Assembly: GCA_051362555.1 (NCBI GenBank)
Contig: CM120649.1
Span: forward strand, 1,736,001 to 1,800,000
Direction of reading: 5' to 3'
DNA: 64,000 nucleotides
DNA from: Lingula anatina
Lineage: Eukaryota; Animalia; Brachiopoda
Shown here: piece by piece, positions 721 through 19,812 of the stretch
Layout: the number at the start of each line of letters is the position of its first letter
Numbering within the stretch: position 1 is the first letter of the stretch
Program-made: the position numbers and the translations under genes
Notes under the pieces: model-generated
What the model saw: the letters and a program-made list of their open reading frames with translations, nothing else
What the model was told of the DNA's origin: nothing
Databases searched by the model: none

Positions 721-1241
721 TGTTGTAAAGTTAATTACTTACCCTTACACTCATTACAATTAGTAATAAAAGGGAAATCAAATAGATGAAAAGTTAGAGT
801 GATATTGAGTGCAAGTTAAGCTTAATCGAGTGTCAACAAGTGTAGAACATGTTTTTAGTGTCAGAAGAAGATGGAAAAGATCCAAGGCAATAACATTTAA
901 TGTGATTGGTCAATTTCATAACAGATGTTAATTTTGATCAACTGTTTATCACATGATAACTAAGTTTTGGACATGATTCAAGTATGAGTAATGCAAATAG
1001 TATTTTGGATGAGTTTAGTTGAAAACAAGGTTCTTAGACATTACCTAATAAGGGAATGTACTATGGTAAAGTAAACATGACAATGGAAAGTTTCTGGAAA
1101 TCACGCCATAAACAATAAAAAGAACATGATTACACGCGTGATCAGTACGGAAAATTAGAGTATAAATATGGGTAAAATTGTATGAAAATTAAGTGGTGAA
1201 TAAATGATTGAAGACTCCAGAACCTCGTCGGCGTTATAATA
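721..1241 (+). repeat. 5' LTR (521 bp)
   Basis: Matches 10955-11475 with one visible mismatch (A880 vs G11114). Termini TGTTGTAA...TTATAATA. Confidence 0.97.
1161..1204 (+). promoter_or_regulatory. LTR TATA box (1161-1168) and poly(A) signal AATAAA (1199-1204)
   Basis: TATAAATA followed 38 nt later by AATAAA near the LTR 3' end, the usual U3-R-U5 order. The 3' LTR copy of AATAAA is at 11433-11438. Confidence 0.7.
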
Positions 1242-1243
1242 AA

Positions 1244-1253
1244 TGGTGGAGGA
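1244..1253 (+). promoter_or_regulatory. Primer-binding site, probably tRNA-Ala
   Basis: TGGTGGAGGA lies 2 nt after the 5' LTR. TGGTGGAG is complementary to the ...CUCCACCA 3' end of tRNA-Ala. Confidence 0.7.
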
Positions 1254-1276
1254 AGAAACCGGTCCCGACTCTACCG

Positions 1277-3031
1277 ATGCAAAGTGAACAACCAGAGAAT
1301 TGGAGTCCTCCAGCAGCAAACACTAGAAAAGCTGTACAGAAGAAACAACTAGAGTCAGGTACCGAAGGTAAATCACCACAAAGACTGGAGAAAACACCAA
1401 CTTTATCTCCAGGAACACCTTGTTTTACATGTACTTTTGCTCCAAAATACGTTAAAGAAAGTGAACAAACTTTTGAAATTCTATCATCTAGCAGTGAGTC
1501 GTCCGAAGAAGACGAAACACTACCTGAAAATTCTCACCAACAGACTGTTGTTCAGAAATGCAGTTTGTTAGATCAAGTCGTCGAGCAAAAATCACCATCA
1601 TATTTTTTGAAAGAGGCCAAACCAATTCCAACAACAGCGACAACCAAATTTCCCAAATCATCGAATTTGAAGGGTTATGCATCGTTAAGCAAAAATCCAT
1701 TTCAAACCGTCCAGAATCTCCCATTGTTATTAGCGACGACGACGACAACGACACAACCGACTCCGAATCTTCAACTGTCATCAGCTTTTCCGAAAACGAA
1801 CCCATTATTATCAGCGACGACGACGACAACGACACAACCGACTCCGAATCTTCAACTGTCATCAGCTTTACCGAAAACGAGCCCATTGTTATTAGCGACG
1901 ACGACGAAGACGACAACACAAGCGACTCCGACAACGACAGAGTCCGCTCAGAGTCTCCAATCGTCATTGATCTCAGCGAAGAATAAGGAGCATTATTCGC
2001 TGAACGTTCAAGATCGCCATACGAACAATTTATTAACAATCGAAAAAACTAGCAAGAAAACAATGTCGTCAGATTTAGGGTTGGCTCCTGAAAAATTCAG
2101 AGGAAATGGAGATGAAGATGTAGAGAGATGGTTGACTCATTTTAGAAACTTTGTCAGTTATAAAGAACTAGAAGGAGACCAGATAACGTCCATTTTTCCT
2201 CTCTTGTTAAAGCAGTCAGCTCTTGATTGGTACGAATCTTTGCCATCTAGAGTACAAAAAGACTGGGAATCTCTTGAGGGCGAGTTTCGACAAAGATATC
2301 AGCTTAGAGATGGGGAAACCTGGGCGAAGGCGTCAGAGTTTTTCCGACGAAACCAAAGGCAAGATGAACCAGTTCAAAATTATATAGCGTCGATGAGGCA
2401 TGATGCAAAACGAGCTCGATTAGATGAAGGTACGGCTCTAACCGTAGTAATGAACGGTTTACTACCGGAAATAAGACCTTTCGTGGTGCAAAGGGAACCC
2501 ACCGACTTCGACTCGTTGGTACACCATGCCCGGATTGCAGAGAATGCAGTACAACCCACACGAAGAGATCAGCAGTCCGATATCAAAATGATCACAGAAA
2601 AAATCGACGCCTTAAAAAGCTCCATCAATGACGTTGTCTTGGCCAGTAAGCAGCCTGAAGTACAAATGGTACAGAATCCGAGACAAGTCCCGAGACCAGT
2701 CCCGAGACAGATCCAGAATGTCCGAAACCTCATACCTCCAAGGCCAAGTCCATTGACTTACATGAGAAGGTTCGGTACCAACGGCATCGGCCACGGGCGC
2801 ATCGACCAACGAAACTTACCACTACGACGCCCCGGGTACAAAGCACTGCCAACAAGTCGTCCGAGAAATCAACAGCAACAAAGCTCAATGAAGGGATGGC
2901 CCATGTGTCAAGGATGTGGTGAGTACACACATCTAAGATCTAAGTGTTTCGCTCGCAATTTCAATTGTTTTTATTGTGGCAAAGTAGGGCATTTAGCAAA
3001 AGTTTGTCATGCTGCGCGAGTGAGCAAGTGA
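1277..3031 (+). CDS. gag: Gag (core from ATG 2063, MSSDLGLAPEKF...), with an open 262-codon Thr/Ser/Pro/Gln-rich N-terminal extension from ATG 1277
   Basis: Retrotransposon-gag-like core (PEKFRGNGDEDVERWL...ALDWYESL...EPVQNYI). Two C-terminal CX2CX4HX4C knuckles (CQGCGEYTHLRSKC, CFYCGKVGHLAKVC). True start codon uncertain. Confidence 0.9.
   Translation: MQSEQPENWSPPAANTRKAVQKKQLESGTEGKSPQRLEKTPTLSPGTPCFTCTFAPKYVKESEQTFEILSSSSESSEEDETLPENSHQQTVVQKCSLLDQVVEQKSPSYFLKEAKPIPTTATTKFPKSSNLKGYASLSKNPFQTVQNLPLLLATTTTTTQPTPNLQLSSAFPKTNPLLSATTTTTTQPTPNLQLSSALPKTSPLLLATTTKTTTQATPTTTESAQSLQSSLISAKNKEHYSLNVQDRHTNNLLTIEKTSKKTMSSDLGLAPEKFRGNGDEDVERWLTHFRNFVSYKELEGDQITSIFPLLLKQSALDWYESLPSRVQKDWESLEGEFRQRYQLRDGETWAKASEFFRRNQRQDEPVQNYIASMRHDAKRARLDEGTALTVVMNGLLPEIRPFVVQREPTDFDSLVHHARIAENAVQPTRRDQQSDIKMITEKIDALKSSINDVVLASKQPEVQMVQNPRQVPRPVPRQIQNVRNLIPPRPSPLTYMRRFGTNGIGHGRIDQRNLPLRRPGYKALPTSRPRNQQQQSSMKGWPMCQGCGEYTHLRSKCFARNFNCFYCGKVGHLAKVCHAARVSK
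1558..1986 (+). CDS. Accessory ORF overlapping the gag leader: acidic protein with tandem SUMO-interacting-like motifs
   Basis: 142 aa with PIVISDDDD, PIIISDDDD, PIVISDDDE, PIVIDLSEE and two TVISF[ST]E motifs. Candidate acceptor ttgttcAG at 1554-1555. Differences between repeat copies are synonymous or conservative in this frame. Confidence 0.6.
   Translation: MQFVRSSRRAKITIIFFERGQTNSNNSDNQISQIIEFEGLCIVKQKSISNRPESPIVISDDDDNDTTDSESSTVISFSENEPIIISDDDDNDTTDSESSTVISFTENEPIVISDDDEDDNTSDSDNDRVRSESPIVIDLSEE
1720..1935 (+). repeat. 81-bp tandem repeat, about 2.5 copies, read in two frames
   Basis: Units start at 1720, 1801 and 1882 (ccc att gtt att agc gac gac...). Confidence 0.9.
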
Positions 3032-6000
3032 CTAAGAAAAGGAACATATAGAAAATTCTATAATAAGACTGAAAATAGGAAAGTACCAATTGCGATTATG
3101 TCTAATTACCAAGCTAATAATTTAGTATCAGTTCGCATTGACAAATTACAAGTTAATGCTTTAGTTGACACAGGCGCTGTCATATCTTGTATATCAGAAG
3201 AACTTTTATCAAAATTAGGAAGAAAAGATCGAAACTTATATGAAAAGCCATCATTAAGAGAAGTTACGGTTGTTGATGGATCTGCGATTAAAGTCCTAGG
3301 AAAAATAGAGTTACCTATATGTTTTCAAAATGTGATCATAAAACATAAATTCCATGTATTTAGTCAGATGCCAAGAGGTTTGATATTAGGTACAGACTTT
3401 CTAAAAAAACATAATGTAAAAATTGATTTATCGTCTAATAGCATGACATTGCCTGATTATGATTTGCTCTTGTCCATGTTTAGTCCACATGTATTAGGTT
3501 TAGTACGTAACTTCAAATCAGAATTGATTCCACCCAGATGCGAATGCTTAATTCCTGTGAAAATATCACATTCTTCATTTGTCTCAGTAGCTTTATTAGA
3601 ACCAGTACAAAAACTTGAGTCAAAGAAAAATCTTATTGGAGCAAAATGTTTAGTTTCCATTAATAAAAACAAATCTTACTACAGAATACTAAATCCTAGT
3701 GATGAAAGTATTTTTCTGCCTAAAAGAACAATATTAGCTTCTGCAAGCTCAATTAATCTAGACAGCATAGCTGTTTTAAATGAAATGTCAGAAGGGAATA
3801 AAATACAAAAGGGTGATCATAGGTTATCAGATCATGAAGCGTTACAAAAAGCTGAAGAATTAAATATAAAGTTTACTGATTCAGACATAAGTGAAAATCA
3901 AAAACAACAGCTGAAAATGTTGATAGGACGTAATCGTGATGTTTTTGCTATCAACCTTTCAGAGTTAGGCACAGCAAATATGTATAAACATCGAATTGAC
4001 ACAATAAATGATGTTCCTGTTAAACAAACATTTTATCGTACTTCACCAAAGCTGAAAGAGGAAATTGTTAAACAAGTAGACGAGATGTTAAAACATAGCA
4101 TAATTGAAGAAAGCATGAGTGAATATAGTAGTCCAGTAGTACTTGTAAAAAAGAAAAACGGTGAATATAGATTCGCAATAGATTACCGGAAGTTAAATAA
4201 AGTTACAAAACCTATGCATTGGCCACTACCACGTTTAGATGATATTTTTGAAACAATAGGTACATCAGGCGCTAGATATTTCTCTAGTTTAGATATGGCA
4301 GGTGCATATTGGCAATTACCCCTTGATCCTGAAACTAAACACAAGACTGCTTTCATTACACACCATGGTCATTTTCAATTTTTGCGTTTAGCATTCGGCC
4401 TTCGTAACGCCGGTGTTAGCTACCAGGCTTTAATGAGCCAAATTTTTAAAGACATGAATTGGAAAACTATCCTTATATACATTGACGATATTTTGGTCAT
4501 GAGTAAAACATTTAATGATCATTTAAAACATTTAGAGTTAGTATTTCAAAAACTGAGATCTGCCAATCTTACACTTAAACCATCAAAATGTAAATTTGCA
4601 ACACCAAAAGCTAAATATTTAGGTCATGTAATAGATAAAAATGGAATAAGACCAGACGAGAAAAATCTTGAAGCCATAAAATCGTTTCCAACACCAAAAG
4701 TTGTAAAAGATGTCAGAAGTTTTCTAGGATTGTGTAACTTCTACAGAAAATTTATAAAAGGCTTCAGTAAAATAGCAGAACCCTTAAATAAACTTTTACG
4801 GAAAGACGTACAATTTTTATGGAGTCCTGAATGTGAAGCATCATTTCAAACATTAAAAGAAGCGTTAATTTCACCTCCTATACTAGCTTATCCAGATATG
4901 TCGCGAGAATTTACATTGACAACGGACGCATCTACTTCCGCTATAGGTTATATTTTAGGTCAAAAGAATGAGAACAATCAAGATAGAGTTATTGCGTATG
5001 GAGGAAGATCTTTGAACAACGCGGAAAAGAACTACACAATTCATGAATTAGAATGTTTGGCAGTAATTGAAGGAATAAAGCAATTCGAACAATATTTATC
5101 TAACAACCATTTCAAAGTGTATACAGATAATAAAGCAATATCTTGGTTACAAAATGTTAAACATACAAATGGCAGACTTATCAGTTGGTCATTAAAATTA
5201 CAAGGCCTAGATTTTGAAATAATTCACAGGCCTGGAAAAACAAACCCAGCTGACGCATTATCAAGACGTGATTATGAACCAGTACATGTTTTAGATACTG
5301 TTAACAATAGTCAGTTAAGTAAAGGTCACATGCGTCAAGTTAAACATTGGACCCAAGCTAAACTTTTCTTACCAAAACAAACAGATAAAAGAATGGAGCA
5401 AAGTTTAACTCAATATAATAACATGAACAGTGTTGATGTAACAAATGTAAACGATAAAGAGAAATTAAAAAAAGATCAACGCGAATGCCCTGAGTTTCAA
5501 GATATAATACTTTACCTAGAACAAAATTATTTACCTAGTGACTTAAAACAAGCGCGTAAAATCATAGCAGAATCAGAACAATATGTAATGATAGATGGTA
5601 TTTTGTATCATCTGTATCAACCTCGTACGCGGGGAATGCCAGAAAAGATGAGAATAATAAGACAATTAGCAATTCCAGTAACACTAAGAAGTGATGTTTT
5701 ACATGCATATCATGATTCATTAACAGCCGGTGGTCATCAGGGTTGTGATAGAACATTTGCCTCTATAAGAAATAAATACTTTTGGAGATCACTTTATAAA
5801 GATGTCATGGAATACGTTAAATCATGTGAAGTGTGTCAAAAGGTTAAACAATTGCGTAGAGATGCTCCAGCACCTTTGAACCCTTTACCAATTGCAGGTG
5901 TGTTTGAAAGAATGCACATGGACATTCTAGGACCCTTGATAAAATCAAGAGAAGGATATAAGTATATTCTGTTAGTAACATGCTCTTTTTCCAATTTTGC

Positions 6001-7090
6001 TGAAGCAATACCCTTAAAAACTCAAGAAGCTGAAGAAATAGCTAAAGCTCTTTATAGAGAAGTGTTTACAAGATATGGCTGTCCGTCATATCTCGTTTCT
6101 GATCGCGGAAAGAATTTTTTGTCCCAAATTATTCAATCACTGTGTAAATTGTTCCACATTAAACGCTATCATACTAGCGCATGGCATCCACAAAGTAACG
6201 CAGCCTGTGAAAGAACCAATTCAATAATTGCACAAACATTAAGAGCATATTGCGATAAAGATCAAACTAATTGGCCTGATATTCTTCCAGGTGTAATGAT
6301 GGCATTACGTATGACTCCTTGTACACAATCTACACATTTTTCTCCTTATTATTTAGTATTTGGACGAGAGATGCGTACACCATTAGATAGTGATTTAATT
6401 CCTGAACTTAATGATAACAAAAATCTACATCAATACATTAAGGATTTGAAAAACACTCTGTCAACAGCAAAAGAAATAGCAACAAAGAATAGAGAAACAT
6501 CTCAGAAACAATATAAAGCAAGGTATGATCTTAAATCAAAGCAACCGATTTATAAAATAGGTGATAGAGTTTGGATATATACGCCAATGACACCTAAAGG
6601 GTTAAGTTCAAAATTGTACATCAAGTACAAAGGACCGTATTATATTACGAAGATTTTATCTACGGGTTGCACATATTATTTGAGAGACTGTAAAACGCAT
6701 AAAGAACATACATCACCTGTCCATGCAAACAGATTAAAAATGTACTATGATCCTAAAGACTATAATAAATACACTAGGTTAAATGACAGTAACCTTGAGC
6801 AAGTCAAGACGAACAAGAAGCAAACGAGTATTGAAACACAAGACAAAGATAAACGTGAAACAAAAGAATTGGATCGAACATCAGACGAAAATCAAGATAC
6901 GTACGAATATTATGAAGTAGAGAAATTGTTATGTTGTAAGAATATAAACAGAAAGAGACATTACAAAGTAAAATGGAAGGGTTATAAGAATCCTACTTGG
7001 GAACCCGAAGAAAATATTTCAGATGCATTAAAAAGAGATTATCATATTAATAAAACTTTACAAGGAAGACGAAGAAAACGTAGAAATTAA
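3032..7090 (+). CDS. pol: Pol polyprotein: aspartic protease, dUTPase-like segment, RT, RNase H, integrase, GPY/F, chromodomain; in frame with gag behind a single TGA
   Basis: LVDTGA; YIDD at 4478-4489; TTDAS; H..H..CEVC zinc motif; MDILGP/SDRG/CERTN catalytic triad; KGPY; YEVEK...YKVKWKGY...TWEPEEN at ~6908-7045. No stop between 3032 and the ATG at 3098. Confidence 0.97.
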   Translation, partial: LRKGTYRKFYNKTENRKVPIAIMSNYQANNLVSVRIDKLQVNALVDTGAVISCISEELLSKLGRKDRNLYEKPSLREVTVVDGSAIKVLGKIELPICFQNVIIKHKFHVFSQMPRGLILGTDFLKKHNVKIDLSSNSMTLPDYDLLLSMFSPHVLGLVRNFKSELIPPRCECLIPVKISHSSFVSVALLEPVQKLESKKNLIGAKCLVSINKNKSYYRILNPSDESIFLPKRTILASASSINLDSIAVLNEMSEGNKIQKGDHRLSDHEALQKAEELNIKFTDSDISENQKQQLKMLIGRNRDVFAINLSELGTANMYKHRIDTINDVPVKQTFYRTSPKLKEEIVKQVDEMLKHSIIEESMSEYSSPVVLVKKKNGEYRFAIDYRKLNKVTKPMHWPLPRLDDIFETIGTSGARYFSSLDMAGAYWQLPLDPETKHKTAFITHHGHFQFLRLAFGLRNAGVSYQALMSQIFKDMNWKTILIYIDDILVMSKTFNDHLKHLELVFQKLRSANLTLKPSKCKFATPKAKYLGHVIDKNGIRPDEKNLEAIKSFPTPKVVKDVRSFLGLCNFYRKFIKGFSKIAEPLNKLLRKDVQFLWSPECEASFQTLKEALISPPILAYPDMSREFTLTTDASTSAIGYILGQKNENNQDRVIAYGGRSLNNAEKNYTIHELECLAVIEGIKQFEQYLSNNHFKVYTDNKAISWLQNVKHTNGRLISWSLKLQGLDFEIIHRPGKTNPADALSRRDYEPVHVLDTVNNSQLSKGHMRQVKHWTQAKLFLPKQTDKRMEQSLTQYNNMNSVDVTNVNDKEKLKKDQRECPEFQDIILYLEQNYLPSDLKQARKIIAESEQYVMIDGILYHLYQPRTRGMPEKMRIIRQLAIPVTLRSDVLHAYHDSLTAGGHQGCDRTFASIRNKYFWRSLYKDVMEYVKSCEVCQKVKQLRRDAPAPLNPLPIAGVFERMHMDILGPLIKSREGYKYILLVTCSFSNFAEAIPLKTQEAEEIAKALYREVFTRYGCPSYLVSDRGKNFLSQIIQSLCKLFHIKRYHTSAWHPQSNAACERTNSIIAQTLRAYCDKDQTNWPDILPGVMMALRMTPCTQSTHFSPYYLVFGREMRTPLDSDLIPELNDNKNLHQYIKDLKNTLSTAKEIATKNRETSQKQYKARYDLKSKQPIYKIGDRVWIYTPMTPKGLSSKLYIKYKGPYYITKILSTGCTYYLRDCKTHKEHTSPVHANRLKMYYDPKDYNKYTRLNDSNLEQVKTNKKQTSIETQDKDKRETKELDRTSDENQDTYEYYEVEKLLCCKNINRKRHYKVKWKGYKNPTWEPEENISDALKRDYHINKTLQGRRRKRRN

Positions 7091-7340
7091 AAAGTAGTCT
7101 CTTCAACATGAGTGAGTTCGATAATCAATACACTGGTAAAGAAAAAGATACACACACATTTAAAAAAAAAAAAAGGGTATACTGTACACAAGGTCAAATG
7201 TAAAATTTGGAAATATCAGCCATACAGCTTAACCGAACCCTAAATGATATCCGGATATCTATTTCCTATCTATCCTATCTTTTATTTTTCTTCTCTTTTT
7301 CTTAGATGAGGCTAAGTTGAGCAGTATTCGCTGTAAGCCA

Positions 7341-9747
7341 ATGGCATTGACCTTCAAAGAAATGGTTCTATGGATTCTCGCTATCATGAGCGTTGCATCA
7401 GCTTCCTCGACAAAGATGGAACAACGCATAAATTATGGTATTGAGTTTAGACCATTTACTGATGCACTTTTTTAACGTAGGGCATTGGTATCATTCTTTT
7501 GAGTTAAAATTACCTAGAATTGATGTAATACCAGCTAGGTTAACGCCATGTCCTAATGGTAAAGTTGGGGAAAATAAATTGATAAACCCACGTTGTAAAA
7601 TATGGATAGACGAAGCAATACGAACATTATCAACATTAAAAAATCAAACAATACACGATTTACGATTGACCATGAAGACAATTTTGTATATGATGCCACA
7701 AATTACTTTGCATGATGTTAGATCGAGAAGTCAAAGATCATTGTTACCAACAGGTAATTTATTCAAAATGCTGTTTGGTGTTTCTAGTGAGTCTGATGTT
7801 ACAAATTTACGAAATTATGTTAACAAGTTTAAAAAGGGTACAATTAACTTGTTTACTAAACAAGCACATAAAATGACTTCATTCATAAATATGGTAGACG
7901 ACAGAATGGAAAACATGAAATCTGCCATTGCTCAAAATCATGAAATTGCTCAGAAATTAAGTTTTGATTTGAACATTTATGCTAGAAATAGTGAATTAGC
8001 AGCAGTAATATCAAGATTGTTTGCACACGAAGAAATGGCTAATTCTCAATTATTATTTTCATTTCAAAATCTACTGATGGCATGCATTCAGTTGACAAAA
8101 GGACAATTGTCATCATTTTTAATTCCACCTGAAGAACTGAGTAAAGTACTTACCGGAATTAAAAAAGAGTTACGTACAATGCCAATCCCAATGGAATTAA
8201 TTCACTATGACCCGAAATATTATTTCCACCATGGACAATTTACATACGGTTTATTCAATCGTTCATTGTTTATAAATCTTCAAATCCCTGTAGTATCCAA
8301 TGCACATATTTTGGAAGTGTACGAAGTTATTACGTTTCCGGTTCCACTTAATCAATCCACAAATCATGCATCCCAGATTCTGAATCTTCCTAAATATTTT
8401 GCCATCACCAAAGATAGACAACATTATGCTATTCCTGATGAATTTACTTGGAGACATTGCAAAGGTAGTCATCTTAAACTTTGCAGTTATAACATGCCAC
8501 TCTTGTCTGTTATTCAGCCAGACTGCACTGCTGCATTGTTTTTAGAGATCTCAGATAAAATACAGCTGCTCTGTAATTTTCGATTTGTTTATAATGCAGT
8601 TAAAACACAGATAAAAGATGTTTTGACAAACCAATTACTTTTGATAAACATAACTGACATTACCCTCAGATGTCCTAAAACAACAACTTCACTAAGCGGA
8701 TGTCACTATTGTGTTATTCAAATCCCTTGTTTTTGCAGTTTGAATTTAGATAGTTTTTATCTCCCACCTCGAGTATCAAGTTGTCAAAACAATACTGAAA
8801 TAACAAAGCTCCATCCTATTAATTTGGGTTTATTACAGTACTTTTATTCACCAGAACAAATTTCTAAAATTGGAAGTAATGATTTATTTAATAAACCCTT
8901 AAATTCGAAATCGAATCTTCTACAATTATTTCAACATAACTTTTCCCGTTTTCTCGCCAAAGATTCCATTGATCATTTGAGCCTACAAAAAATGGCCCAT
9001 GCTTCAAAAAGACAAGAGCAAATCTATTCTTCAATGGCAGATGCTATTTTAGCAGACGAAATATTTCCTACAAATAATTCATCTGAGATAAAAATTTGGA
9101 TTTCATTAGGATTATCGGGCTTATTGTTCATGATAACGATTGGCCTAAGTATCAAAGTCAGACAATTGGCATTAATAGTGGCTTTAATGAAAAAGACACG
9201 TGGTAATGAAGTTTTTCCAACTATTCCGCATTGGTTATTAGATACCACAACAAAGCCAAATTATAAACCAAAGGAACTAAATTCCACAGATCCAACAACA
9301 TTTATTATTTTATTAATGCAGATTGTAATTATTATAATTGTTTTGATTTTCATCTTAGAACAAATCTGGAGAAGGTTTTTCAAATCAAAAAGAAATACTT
9401 TAGTTTTAGAGATTTCTAACAATGAACATTGTATATCAATTCCAATTAAAAATCTATCATTTTGTCCAAAATACTGGGTTTTTCAAAGTGATCATTTTTC
9501 GTTTGATATTTTAAGAGTTGAAGGAATTTACAGACCATATTTGATGATAAATTGGCATGGTTTGCAAATTACAAACCTCATAAATCGAAAGACCATTATT
9601 TTGGAAGAGGCTATCCCGTTAAAAACGTTTACAGCATTTCGCTTAAGGAGATTACTTAAAAGCGAATATTATGCGTTTTTGTGTATTAAACATGCTAATG
9701 CACTTTTCTATGTTCAGTTCGAGACATTTGAGCACAATATAGAATGA
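7341..9747 (+). CDS. env: Envelope fusion glycoprotein (baculovirus F / errantivirus Env-like) with a +1 frameshift at 7468-7473
   Basis: Signal peptide MALTFKEMVLWILAIMSVASA then QRINYGIEF in the 7341 frame, which stops at CTT TTT TAA; the protein continues in the 7435 ORF. RSQR cleavage site (7726-7737) followed by a fusion-peptide-like SLLPTGNLFKMLFGVSSESD. Heptad-rich and Cys-rich regions. Hydrophobic segments at ~9094-9153 and ~9301-9369. Strong polypyrimidine acceptor AG at 7304-7305. Confidence 0.88.
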
Positions 9748-10205
9748 TTTTGATCAAAACTTGGCATGACTTGCTACTCTTGTCTAATAATACAACACAA
9801 TACAATGATTTTTGCGAGTGAACTGTTATAACACGAAGATGTGTGTACAAACATAAAATGACATTTCCATGACTTGAAGATTGAATTTTCTTGATTGTTA
9901 ATTTGATATCAAACACTGATATATGTATTATTATCATGATAATGACTTTGAGAAATGCACAAAGTTATTTTCAATTTGATTCTTGAAGATTACTACTATT
10001 ATGTAATATTATAATACTTATTATTAAAATCATTCACTATTTTATTTGAGTTTTGACATATTGATTTTAGTTATCTATAATATATTATGTAAAATGTAGT
10101 CATTATAATTAGTATATTTTATTTCAATTGTTAAGTATTTAATATTGATATTAAACATTTGTTAATCAATTAGAATGAATTATAATATGTTCTATTTTTT
10201 TTCAG

Positions 10206-10768
10206 ATTCTGACGAATTTGTATATAATATTTACATAGATGACAGAATTGTCAGCTTATCTTTTAAATTTTTTGAGAATTTACGTAAACATTCAATATAC
10301 ATAAATGAATTGTATTTTAAACAGAAAAGAGAACCTAATTTTCAAATAAAATTTCCTTCTGAGGTGATAAACGAATCAATTTTACTGATGTTTTGTGGAA
10401 AGTTTAATTCTATAGATGAACAGTTGGACTTTGTAAAATTAATAGGTTCTGCTCATTATATGATGATATCAGAAGATTACATAGTTTATATGTTGCATCA
10501 AATACCATCAGGTATTGGTAAATGTATTATTCAAGCAATATATTATGCATGGAATGTCACTCATTTAGTCAAAGTTAGCATATTATTACTACGACGTTTA
10601 AATATTGCTGTTAAATATTATACTGAATTACTACTGAATAAGGATAAAGTTATATCATATAATAGATTTAGACGACGTATTATTAAGATAACAAGAAATG
10701 ACAATAATTGTGTTCTTACAATAAATGTTATGACACAATGTCCTGTTTGTAAATACATTGAACATTGA
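10206..10768 (+). CDS. Accessory ORF/exon encoding a divergent BTB/POZ-like domain with a C-terminal CxxC
   Basis: LRKHSIYINELY, QIKFPSEVINESILLMFCGKF and DFVKLIGSAHYMMISE line up by eye with the BTB pattern La.+S.YF..lf / i.l..v..e.f..ll.f.YtG / ..ll.aA.yl.i. The ORF is intact in very AT-rich DNA and follows the acceptor ttctattttttttcAG (10204-10205). An in-frame ATG is at 10175. Confidence 0.62.
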
Positions 10769-10954: not shown

Positions 10955-11475
10955 TGTTGTAAAGTTAATTACTTACCCTTACACTCATTACAATTAGTAA
11001 TAAAAGGGAAATCAAATAGATGAAAAGTTAGAGTGATATTGAGTGCAAGTTAAGCTTAATCGAGTGTCAACAAGTGTAGAACATGTTTTTAGTGTCAGAA
11101 GAAGATGGAAAAGGTCCAAGGCAATAACATTTAATGTGATTGGTCAATTTCATAACAGATGTTAATTTTGATCAACTGTTTATCACATGATAACTAAGTT
11201 TTGGACATGATTCAAGTATGAGTAATGCAAATAGTATTTTGGATGAGTTTAGTTGAAAACAAGGTTCTTAGACATTACCTAATAAGGGAATGTACTATGG
11301 TAAAGTAAACATGACAATGGAAAGTTTCTGGAAATCACGCCATAAACAATAAAAAGAACATGATTACACGCGTGATCAGTACGGAAAATTAGAGTATAAA
11401 TATGGGTAAAATTGTATGAAAATTAAGTGGTGAATAAATGATTGAAGACTCCAGAACCTCGTCGGCGTTATAATA
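10955..11475 (+). repeat. 3' LTR (521 bp)
   Basis: Near-identical to 721-1241 and followed by the TSD TCTG. Confidence 0.97.
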
Positions 11476-12185
11476 TCTGTAAGAAACAAATAGATGTGGC
11501 TAAGGTAAAGGAAAAGATATTCATACTTTTTGTCCTGTAGCAGACCTTGGTCCAAAAGCACCAATAAAAAAAGAAGCTTTATTTACACCCAAGAATGCTT
11601 GTTGCTATAGTTACAGGTAGAACCTGATTTTTGGCCAATTTATTTTTAAATCGGGAGAGTTGAAAACCTTGTAATTGGTAGGTATTGAAGCCTTACTCTT
11701 AAAACATTAAACCAAATACATTATTTTCAAAATCTGATTCATATAGAACGTAGTTTTAACTTTTTTGCCGTACTTTCAGAATTTTTAATTAAATGATCGA
11801 AATGTTGTTAAAGTTAACATTTTTTTTTTATTTCTGAAAGAGTTCCAGAAGTGGTGCTTTGTAAAGTTTTAGATTCCTAATACGTGGATCAAAATAAGAT
11901 TTGATTATTCATAGCAAGAAGAGCAAATCCTCTATCGTTTTATCAACTATGTTCATTTATCCATTTAGGAGGCCAGATTGAAATTTCTCAATATTTCCAA
12001 TTTTCGTATATATTTTATAGTGCCTGACTCAAATCAATTAAAAAATTTAATATGTTATTGGTCATGAGGGTAGTTTTGAGGAGGTTGATGTTTTAAATTT
12101 GTAAAAATGGTGTGAAATATTGGTATCTTCACAGGTACTTTGTATTTTGACAACCATATGTCTTGTTATTTTTGGTATCTGGAAA

Positions 12186-18498: not shown

Positions 18499-19812
18499 AA
18501 TTTCATCAGAAATAATCATGGCAACAATTGGGTCAGTTCGTTGGGAATCATTGTAATAAAAAAGACCAAAAACAAAAGTTTGCAATAGTTGCCTTTACTG
18601 CTTTACCCAACACTAATATTTGTCAAGCTGCATGAGTGTTTATGGAAGTCCCGACCTGTATGGAAATTTTCTAGGTCAAATATAAAACTACACTGATGTA
18701 CCGGTACTTGCAGTATATTATAATCAGTAGTGAGGAGAGTTTGCATTTCCTGAGCTGACATCAACGAGGAAAAACGAAGTAATTTCTATGTTAACTGAGA
18801 AATATTGTAATCAGTGCAGTTCTGTAACTTGGTGGTGATCTTATCCACTGCGTACACCGATCGTTGCTAAATAGCCAGTGGAATGTATCTCAGCCAGGGG
18901 CGGACGGAAACTGTCTTCTGGGTCAGATTTTTTCCAAATTTATATTAACGGGCATCTAACTTTTTTGCTGTTGCAAGAAGGTCAAAAATCTTAGATGGAA
19001 CAATAAAAATAATTTGGAAGACTCTCAGAAAATATATCTGAATCCTCCCCTGACAGTGTTTCCGGTGGAGTGGAATGCTTCCTCTGTAATATGTTTAGTT
19101 TAAGCTTGGTCAGGAATCCAATTAACCTTTAAATACCAAATACTGATTAATAAAGGAGATGGTTGCCTGATAGCACACTTTTAACAACCGCCTTTAGAAT
19201 TTTAAGAGATGGATAGTGAAGGTGTGAGAATAGACACTCTCCATTTGTTGAAACTATTTCGTACATTCAACCAAATATAGTGAAAATTTTGTTTCAAGTA
19301 ATTCAACCATATATATATACAGACTACAGACTATCAAGAAAATTTACTTGAAAGCCGTTGCCATTGTACAGGCTTGCTAATGGACGCTCTTCGGTCCTGC
19401 AGGTATGTTTTCTGAGACAAATGGATTATATGCATTTCTGCTAAACGAAAAACAGCGAGTATTCACAGAATCTGCAAATGACTAGTAAAGTTTTTTTTTT
19501 TTTAAATAATATTCGGTTATTTTAATACCTTGAAAGATGAGCAGTATCACGACTTGATGGGTTTTCATATGTGTCATGATAATCACAAGGTAAACTGTGA
19601 CACTGGCGATGTATTCTAATTGTCTGAAAAGGACAACTGTCTGTATGAAAAAATGTAGGTGACCATTGTCAAGGAAAATATTTCAGCAGACCTTGGTCCA
19701 AAAACACCAAAACCAGTTTTTTTACACCCATCAATGCTTGTTGCTATGGCCGCAGGCTAAACCTGACTTTCGGCCAAATATTGGTTTTATATCAGAGGAG
19801 TTTGAAACCTTG

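Follow-up and report, generated by a model that had tools for sequence, protein, structure and literature searches.

A SUMO-interacting-motif-type array in an overlapping frame of a Ty3/gypsy retrotransposon leader from Lingula anatina

The leader of a young retrotransposon in Lingula anatina contains an array of SUMO-interacting motif (SIM)-type cores, written in a reading frame that overlaps the frame of gag. This array is a real and unusual feature of the 64,000-nucleotide stretch of DNA that we analyzed (here called the window), and its four SIM-type motifs are predicted from their sequence to bind SUMO-tagged host proteins. The stretch 1609-1986 looks dual-coding because the expected stop codons (about 3 to 5 in each frame, P = 0.005 to 0.02) are absent from both frames. 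The reading that we prefer, tentatively and at less than even probability, is that one leader would feed two products: an extended Gag and, by a frame switch at a run of T's, an acidic multi-SIM protein that would serve as a SUMO decoy against silencing.

The element and its genes

The element is a young Ty3/gypsy retrotransposon that carries an env-like gene and whose integrase has a chromodomain. Its long terminal repeats (LTRs) are identical at 520 of 521 positions (one mismatch), and TCTG flanks both ends as a target-site duplication; the insertion is therefore recent. Gag contains a capsid and pol runs in PR-RT-RH-IN order, as in env-carrying Ty3/gypsy elements. By eye, the env-like protein would fit the F type: it has a signal-peptide-like leader, a hydrophobic stretch directly behind a basic cleavage-like site, and further hydrophobic segments toward the C-terminus. 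It matched no Pfam envelope family and no PDB entry, and its structural model had a pLDDT of 32.6. This copy is not intact in all three genes, as the leader and main frames of env are offset near 7432-7475. BLAST of the element against the 64-kb window found no second copy there, and PHROGs gave 0 families for four element proteins. In coordinates of the window, the parts of the element are as follows.

721..1241, + strand: 5' LTR, 521 bp, with TATAAA at 1161 and AATAAA at 1199
1244..1255, + strand: primer-binding-site-like stretch by sequence, starting with TGG directly 3' of the LTR
1277..1603, + strand: coding part of the leader, read in the gag frame for 109 codons starting at ATG 1277, a putative shared N-terminus
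From 1472, + strand: fifth SIM-like motif, in the gag-frame leader (FEIL, then a Ser/Glu run)
1528..1986, + strand: SIM frame, stop to stop, with ATG 1558 and 142 codons from that ATG to the end at 1986
1603..1609, + strand: T run, a slippery-type heptamer in the -1 register from the gag frame to the SIM frame; copies vary in its length
1610..2062, + strand: overlap with the SIM frame plus spacer, read in the gag frame, free of stops for 151 codons, basic and rich in Thr/Ser, a candidate linker of an extended Gag
1720..1915, + strand: 81-bp tandem repeat, 2.4 copies, with SIM-like cores 1 to 3 at 1720, 1801 and 1882
1957..1983, + strand: C-terminal SIM-like core 4, PIVIDLSEE, followed by the stop
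2063..3031, + strand: gag core, with capsid from about residue 11 and a zinc knuckle (PF03732; dArc2 capsid match, E = 1e-4)
3032..7090, + strand: pol, with protease, RT, RNase H, integrase and chromodomain, in the frame of gag past one TGA
7248..9747, + strand: env-like gene, with a signal-peptide frame (7248-7475) and a main frame (7432-9747) that are mutually offset here
10166..10768, + strand: 200-codon ORF between env and the 3' LTR, with no family matched
10955..11475, + strand: 3' LTR, one mismatch to the 5' LTR

By layout rather than by tree, the element can be likened to the "ancient errantiviruses," env-carrying Ty3/gypsy elements with a chromodomain from Cnidaria, Mollusca and Annelida (PMC13524379). 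It shares with them the LTR-gag-pol-env order, the Ty3/gypsy domain order, the C-terminal chromodomain and the youth of the copies; it differs in its apparently dual-coding leader and in the extra ORF after env. The main text of that paper does not mention SUMO, overlapping frames or "upstream of gag."

The SIM frame

A sequence-only reading of this DNA had proposed an ORF at 1558..1986 in an overlapping frame. That ORF is real (142 codons within the stop-to-stop stretch 1528-1986), and it overlaps, with an offset of one base, the frame of gag, which stays open from 1208 to 3031. The four hydrophobic cores with Ser/Asp/Glu runs described in it, three of them from an 81-bp repeat, were confirmed by motif positions and by a repeat search. 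The cores are PIVIS at 1720, PIIIS at 1801, PIVIS at 1882 and PIVID at 1957, each followed by D/E/S, at spacings of 27, 27 and 25 residues; the repeat at 1720-1915 has a period of 81, 2.4 copies and 93% matches. Past the T run, the SIM part has 125 codons, with 36 D/E and 32 S/T residues (68/125 being D, E, S or T), a pI of 4.05, 11 CK2-type S/T-x-x-D/E sites and one Cys.

Each of the four cores thus has three or four Ile/Val/Leu residues beside an acidic or phosphorylatable flank, the core makeup of a multi-SIM binder, and, by sequence, several such closely spaced cores in a low-complexity region form an RNF4-type array. In the definition of a parallel SIM, an acidic or phosphorylated tract comes after the hydrophobic core (PMC12751080), and the cores of the SIM frame agree with that definition. 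Using SIM class patterns, we counted four matches in the 125 residues after 1609; shuffling these residues 20,000 times gave 0.26 on average (P = 1e-4). With repeat units 2 and 3 removed, two matches were left versus 0.13 by shuffle (P = 0.006). The same patterns found no match in gag, pol, env or the gag-frame leader. They matched five times in the antisense frame over the SIM DNA, so they are permissive on low-complexity sequence here. The SIM-like character claimed for the frame is upheld by a motif count above shuffles, with the antisense count as a caveat.

These antisense matches, in a frame that is itself open for 186 codons, favor a different explanation, in which only an extended Gag is made and the SIM frame is a functionless by-product of its linker, which is Thr-rich and built on ACG repeats. 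Shifted back by one base, ACG becomes GAC (Asp), which fits this explanation as well. We consider it distinctly unlikely; among the points against it, the SIM ORF terminates exactly on core 4, which belongs to a second, different SIM class and lies outside the repeat.

The four substitutions between repeat units 1 and 2 had been taken as a sign of selection on the SIM frame. They are, as had been described, V>I, S>T and two synonymous changes in that frame, and they give L>S, F>L and N>S in the gag frame; that account omitted the fourth change, which is synonymous in the gag frame. Two synonymous changes in four are at chance level (binomial P = 0.23), too small a sample for this argument for selection. 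Constraint on the SIM frame is supported by other evidence, namely the absence of expected stops and the share of synonymous changes (4/7) among the differences listed between copies, both given below.

Pfam scans of the SIM and gag frames found no RING domain, and the SIM protein is therefore not a STUbL. There was no SUMO-protease (ULP) domain in the six element ORFs scanned, no DNA-, RNA- or capsid-binding domain in the SIM part by Pfam and PHROGs, and no SUMO acceptor site (I/V/L/M/F/P/C-K-x-D/E) in the leader, SIM part or overlap. When two of the cores were modeled in complex with C. elegans SUMO, the prediction scored 0.18 against a mark of 0.34, which speaks neither way.

A SIM protein might also be made for another role, either as a recruiter that brings the particle, or the integration complex, to chromatin rich in SUMO, or as an acidic transactivator; we regard this as very unlikely. 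Acidic tracts with bulky hydrophobic residues are typical of activation domains too, and the SIM part resembles such a domain in this respect. The integrase bears a chromodomain, which would suit a recruiter, and viral SIMs serve localization besides antagonism (PMC12751080). Against such a role, the SIM part is unfused to Gag or integrase here, and the searches just described found in it neither a DNA-, RNA- or capsid-binding domain nor an acceptor site.

Two open frames

We gauged the openness of each frame by holding the residues of the other fixed and redrawing the codons. With SIM-frame residues fixed and codons redrawn from pol or gag usage, 3.5 to 4.0 gag-frame stops are expected in 1609-1800 with duplicates removed, and there are none (P = 0.005 to 0.011). 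A null built from the region's own third-position composition, again with duplicates removed, gave 0 versus 4.2 expected (P = 0.006). The absence of stops has a specific source: of the Ile/Val/Leu codons at risk of making a gag-frame stop, 0 of 21 end in A, compared with 9 of 33 among the remaining four-fold codons (P = 0.007; 0/13 versus 7/24 after de-duplication, P = 0.03), and there is no such avoidance in gag and pol. The longest stop-free +1 run is 61 codons in pol, env or gag, compared with 151 in the overlap and spacer. Under a null of the region's own codon usage, which is circular, the open gag frame is unremarkable (P = 0.4 to 0.8). The sequence-only reading had set a stand-alone ORF against a neutral Thr-rich gag frame; it was incomplete in that the gag frame is also open beyond chance.

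Conversely, with gag-frame residues held fixed and codons redrawn, 3.3 to 4.6 SIM-frame stops are expected over 1609-1986 with duplicates removed, and none is present (P = 0.005 to 0.02). This depletion argues against a functionless by-product. Upstream of 1603, the SIM register has nine stops where 6 to 8.5 are expected, and the openness of the SIM frame upstream of the T run is at chance level (P = 0.26 to 0.36). Because the cores are probably old duplicates of one another, the stop and motif nulls overstate independence. The P values given for frames, motifs and copy differences are uncorrected.

The T run and start codons

The T run at 1603-1609 is the sole slippery-type heptamer in the gag frame over 1277-3031. 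It has the X XXY YYZ form of a programmed -1 frameshift site in the right register and points into the SIM frame. Slippery-type heptamers also occur elsewhere in the element (seven in pol and three in env), and the chance of a single heptamer landing at this position is about 11%. No stable RNA structure was found 3' of the heptamer, as 1610-1700 folds like its shuffles (z = 0.13; pseudoknots lie outside the model).

Among the candidate start codons, ATG 1277 sits in a weak context, and two short ORFs lie upstream of it. Counting from the predicted transcription start, ATG 1558 is the earliest to have a purine at -3; the ATGs at 1204, 1243, 1277 and 1429 have pyrimidines there. ATG 2063 has A at -3, and the capsid starts about 11 residues after this Met.

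Two further explanations arise from these features. A stand-alone 142-amino-acid SIM protein might be made from ATG 1558 by leaky scanning or reinitiation, with the T run incidental. The purine at -3 of that ATG and a heptamer that lacks a downstream stimulator both fit this explanation, which we judge rather unlikely; the chance-level openness of the SIM frame 5' of the T run stands against it. It is also unlikely that the leader and SIM part together make up an ordinary accessory ORF that was broken by mutation at the T run in this lineage, with no programmed slippage and with Gag made from ATG 2063. The context of that codon and its closeness to the capsid favor such a broken ORF, as does the split env of the same copy; the 151 stop-free codons of the gag frame would be left unexplained.

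Variation among copies

Other copies were found as contigs from four DNA runs (X1 to X4) of the same organism, aligned on 1200-2150. The differences listed were 40 of 156; 3 before ATG 1277 were left out, and the remaining 37 were scored singly and unphased. Of the 23 listed in 1277-1602, 10 leave the gag-frame residue unchanged (25% expected, P = 0.04); in the SIM register 6 of 23 are synonymous and 2 make stops. Several of the differences listed in 1277-1602 stem from a rearranged family. Past the T run, in 1609-1986, 7 differences are listed, of which the SIM frame reads 4 as synonymous (P = 0.05) and the gag frame 2; with the four repeat differences added, the counts are 6/11 (P = 0.02) and 3/11. 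Most changes 3' of the T run are silent or conservative when read in the SIM frame but not when read in the gag frame, which argues against a by-product frame. The point where tolerance of differences passes from the gag frame to the SIM frame coincides with the T run; the upstream/downstream contrast itself was not significant for the differences listed (Fisher P = 0.23). Of the seven listed in 1987-2062, only one leaves the gag-frame residue unchanged.

The T run itself differs among copies. A contig from X2 (record 9), with 10 other letters in 339 (about 3% diverged), crosses the site without gaps and has the length found in the window; an assembly error at the T run is thus ruled out. Because this contig is independent and diverged, the window's T-run length has persisted, which speaks against the broken accessory ORF. 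A more diverged contig from X1 (record 3; about 85% alike, with 43 other letters over 1453-1744) has another length that joins the leader and the SIM frame across the run, and this continuity favors the broken accessory ORF. The same length would place ATG 1558 in a different frame from the cores, and both listed differences in the first 15 codons from that ATG (1558-1602) are synonymous in the gag frame and residue changing in the SIM frame. Both findings count against a protein started at 1558. The stand-alone ORF first proposed is thus an incomplete picture in this respect too, since the differences listed for 1558-1602 favor the gag frame and copies vary in T-run length exactly where the frames meet.

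Some contigs have disrupted frames. One contig each in X2 and X3, from one study, has a joint at 1741-1918 that brings a SIM-frame stop, worked out by hand, just past core 1 and leaves the gag frame open. A relative keeping only the gag frame had been named beforehand as evidence against the SIM ORF, and this copy is one; it also favors the by-product explanation. A contig from X4 is without 1573-1940, hence without the T run and three cores, and a joint at 1896-1944 in X1 alters both frames. Contigs from X1 and X4 carry frame-changing length differences at 2042-2058. These differences, together with the single synonymous change in seven at 1987-2062, indicate that the extended Gag is not universal, and the disruption of the gag-frame extension in some copies fits the broken accessory ORF. 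The contigs with disrupted frames, which are unphased, may be decayed or rearranged copies. Among the joints listed, five of nine delete whole codons of the repeat region (84, 84, 168, 171 and net 171 bases). Whole-codon deletions are also what an 81-bp unit alone would give.

Searches for homologs and RNA

A search for the same ORF in relatives, as had been suggested, found no homolog in any collection searched, which is consistent with a by-product frame. Among candidates of near length, there were 0 of 934 for the SIM ORF protein, 0 of 7997 for the long gag frame and 0 of 695 for the capsid region. HMMER over 1.84 billion representatives returned four matches, which we read as matches of Asp-run repeats in unrelated proteins and rejected. 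The ESM Atlas held no usable match to the SIM part, and viral contigs held none to gag or RT. Of 295 metagenome loci, 80 were kept; at 32 to 38% identity in RT/RNase H they were too distant to be accepted as relatives. A pair of SIM pattern matches was present in 6 of these 80 loci and three in none, many loci being without the region upstream of gag.

RNA reads on the element numbered 17, 91, 1338 and 10, from 6 to 25% of each of four runs, and only 5 matched at 99% or more. Depth was below 2 over 1422-2143 and no splice joint was present among those listed; the reads are too few and too diverged to show starts, splicing or frame.

Discussion

In the model that we prefer, both frames being open, the motifs and repeat, the -1 register of the T run and its differing length among copies are observed. 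Translation would start at ATG 1277 and give a 109-residue leader, carrying the fifth SIM-like motif, that both products would share. With no frame change, it would continue into a 584-residue Gag with a Thr-rich linker; a slip at 1603-1609, by ribosome or polymerase, would yield an acidic protein of about 234 residues. Ser and Thr beside the cores could undergo CK2-type phosphorylation at the 11 candidate sites. The SIM array would then bind multi-SUMOylated proteins with avidity, and the SIM protein would compete with host SIM readers of the silencing machinery. Such competition would be its simplest action because it has no RING, protease or DNA-binding domain.

Work on known systems gives this model some context. 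Repeated SIMs bring avidity and favor multi-SUMOylated targets (PMC12751080). In flies, SUMO-SIM contacts connect piRNA targeting with heterochromatin, and mdg1 and gypsy were de-repressed when a two-SIM fragment of Sov was overexpressed, an effect that the SIM-less core did not have (bioRxiv 10.1101/2021.07.27.453956). Unlike the array described here, that fragment also carries a specific Panx-binding domain. A wider version of the model strikes us as doubtful: a retrotransposon-encoded, enzyme-free SUMO sponge in which the T run would set the ratio of sponge to Gag and the 81-bp repeat, which varies from copy to copy, would tune the number of SIMs, as a counter-defense against piRNA/SETDB1-type silencing.

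Like RNF4 and Arkadia/RNF111, the SIM part has four hydrophobic cores at short intervals, each with a tail that is acidic or phosphorylatable (PMC12751080). Here there is no RING, the cores are 25 to 27 residues apart and come from a DNA tandem repeat, and the protein is a predicted binder. HSV-1 ICP0, KSHV K-bZIP and LANA, and EBV BGLF4 are likewise parasite-encoded proteins with SIMs aimed at host SUMO (PMC12751080); in those proteins, one or two SIMs accompany domains with enzymatic or DNA-binding function, whereas the retrotransposon leader has a bare array. The ULP domains of KAONASHI-MULE and CACTA also place a SUMO-pathway module in a transposon (PMC2528002), but these are plant DNA transposons with a captured SUMO-protease-like domain, and ours is a linear-motif array with no catalytic part. 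The proposed products resemble the transframe products of the HIV gag-pol U-rich site, potyvirus P3N-PIPO and HeT-A gag in having a common N-terminus, another C-terminus and a homopolymer switch (PMC5009743, PMC4552492). They differ in that the switch proposed here lies 5' of the capsid, has no stimulator that we found and varies in run length.

Viral SIM proteins (PMC12751080) and SUMO-protease-like domains in plant DNA transposons (PMC2528002) are thus known already. Our literature search, with most subscription journals outside its reach, found no report of a SUMO-interacting motif in a gypsy LTR retrotransposon and, among the papers listed and judged by titles and abstract openings, none of a transposon-encoded SIM array. 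The array bears on the question of whether retrotransposons of animals carry silencing suppressors of their own, and a short multi-SIM peptide is a cheap test object. If the model is true, a dual-coding Gag leader would be an undescribed feature among the env-carrying elements of PMC13524379, as far as the main text of that paper goes, and the element would make a small side protein that competes for the SUMO tags used by animals in transposon silencing.

Gag-pol junction and possible splicing to env

Within the retrotransposon, gag ends in a TGA that is followed directly by CTA, and pol continues in the same frame (positions 3029-3034). We take TGA-CTA at this position to be the context of a leaky stop codon. 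When the RNA 3' of the TGA was examined, no structure was found beyond that of shuffled sequences (z = -0.06).

For env, the only good splice donor within 1190-2100 lies at 1368 (8/9 match), and the only strong acceptor upstream of env lies at 7305. The two are phase compatible, such that splicing would place the env signal-peptide frame directly behind the leader that begins at ATG 1277, an agreement with a 1-in-3 probability of arising by chance. The 1368/7305 joint was not seen among the RNA reads listed, which represent 6 to 25% of each of four runs.

Env and a downstream accessory ORF

Between env and the 3' LTR is a second accessory ORF, for which no family was found in Pfam or PHROGs.
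10166-10768, plus strand: second accessory ORF, 200 codons, with a CxxC at its end
Reads from related copies in the RNA run X18 cover this ORF and reach a depth of 10 to 20 on pol and the 3' end. Almost no X18 reads fall within 7198-9002, the initial 1.8 kb of env, and the expressed relatives may lack env or carry a different one. Separately, the signal-peptide and main frames of env are offset at 7432-7475 in the window copy, despite its almost identical LTRs.

Antisense frame and low-complexity matches

An open frame also runs antisense over the leader and is probably a shadow of the 81-bp repeat.
1488-2048, minus strand: antisense open frame, 186 codons, opposite the SIM ORF stretch and in register with the third frame
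Two protein matches from the HMMER search with the SIM ORF, P0001 and P0002, align to it through low complexity only; we read them as an integrase-like protein in which Asp-run repeats form a long tandem array.

Other copies and genomic setting

Contigs from three DNA runs of the same organism (X2, X3, and X4) begin to match the element at 1426-1427. Their long unmatched ends and high depth suggest a family that is rearranged and probably nonautonomous. At the LTR end (1200-1241), summed contig depth is about 10 times that of the leader in DNA runs X1 to X3, suggesting that many solo LTRs exist. Both element flanks (1-720 and 11476-11765) are about 80% alike to a copy at 19348-19777, and the element is inserted within another dispersed repeat.
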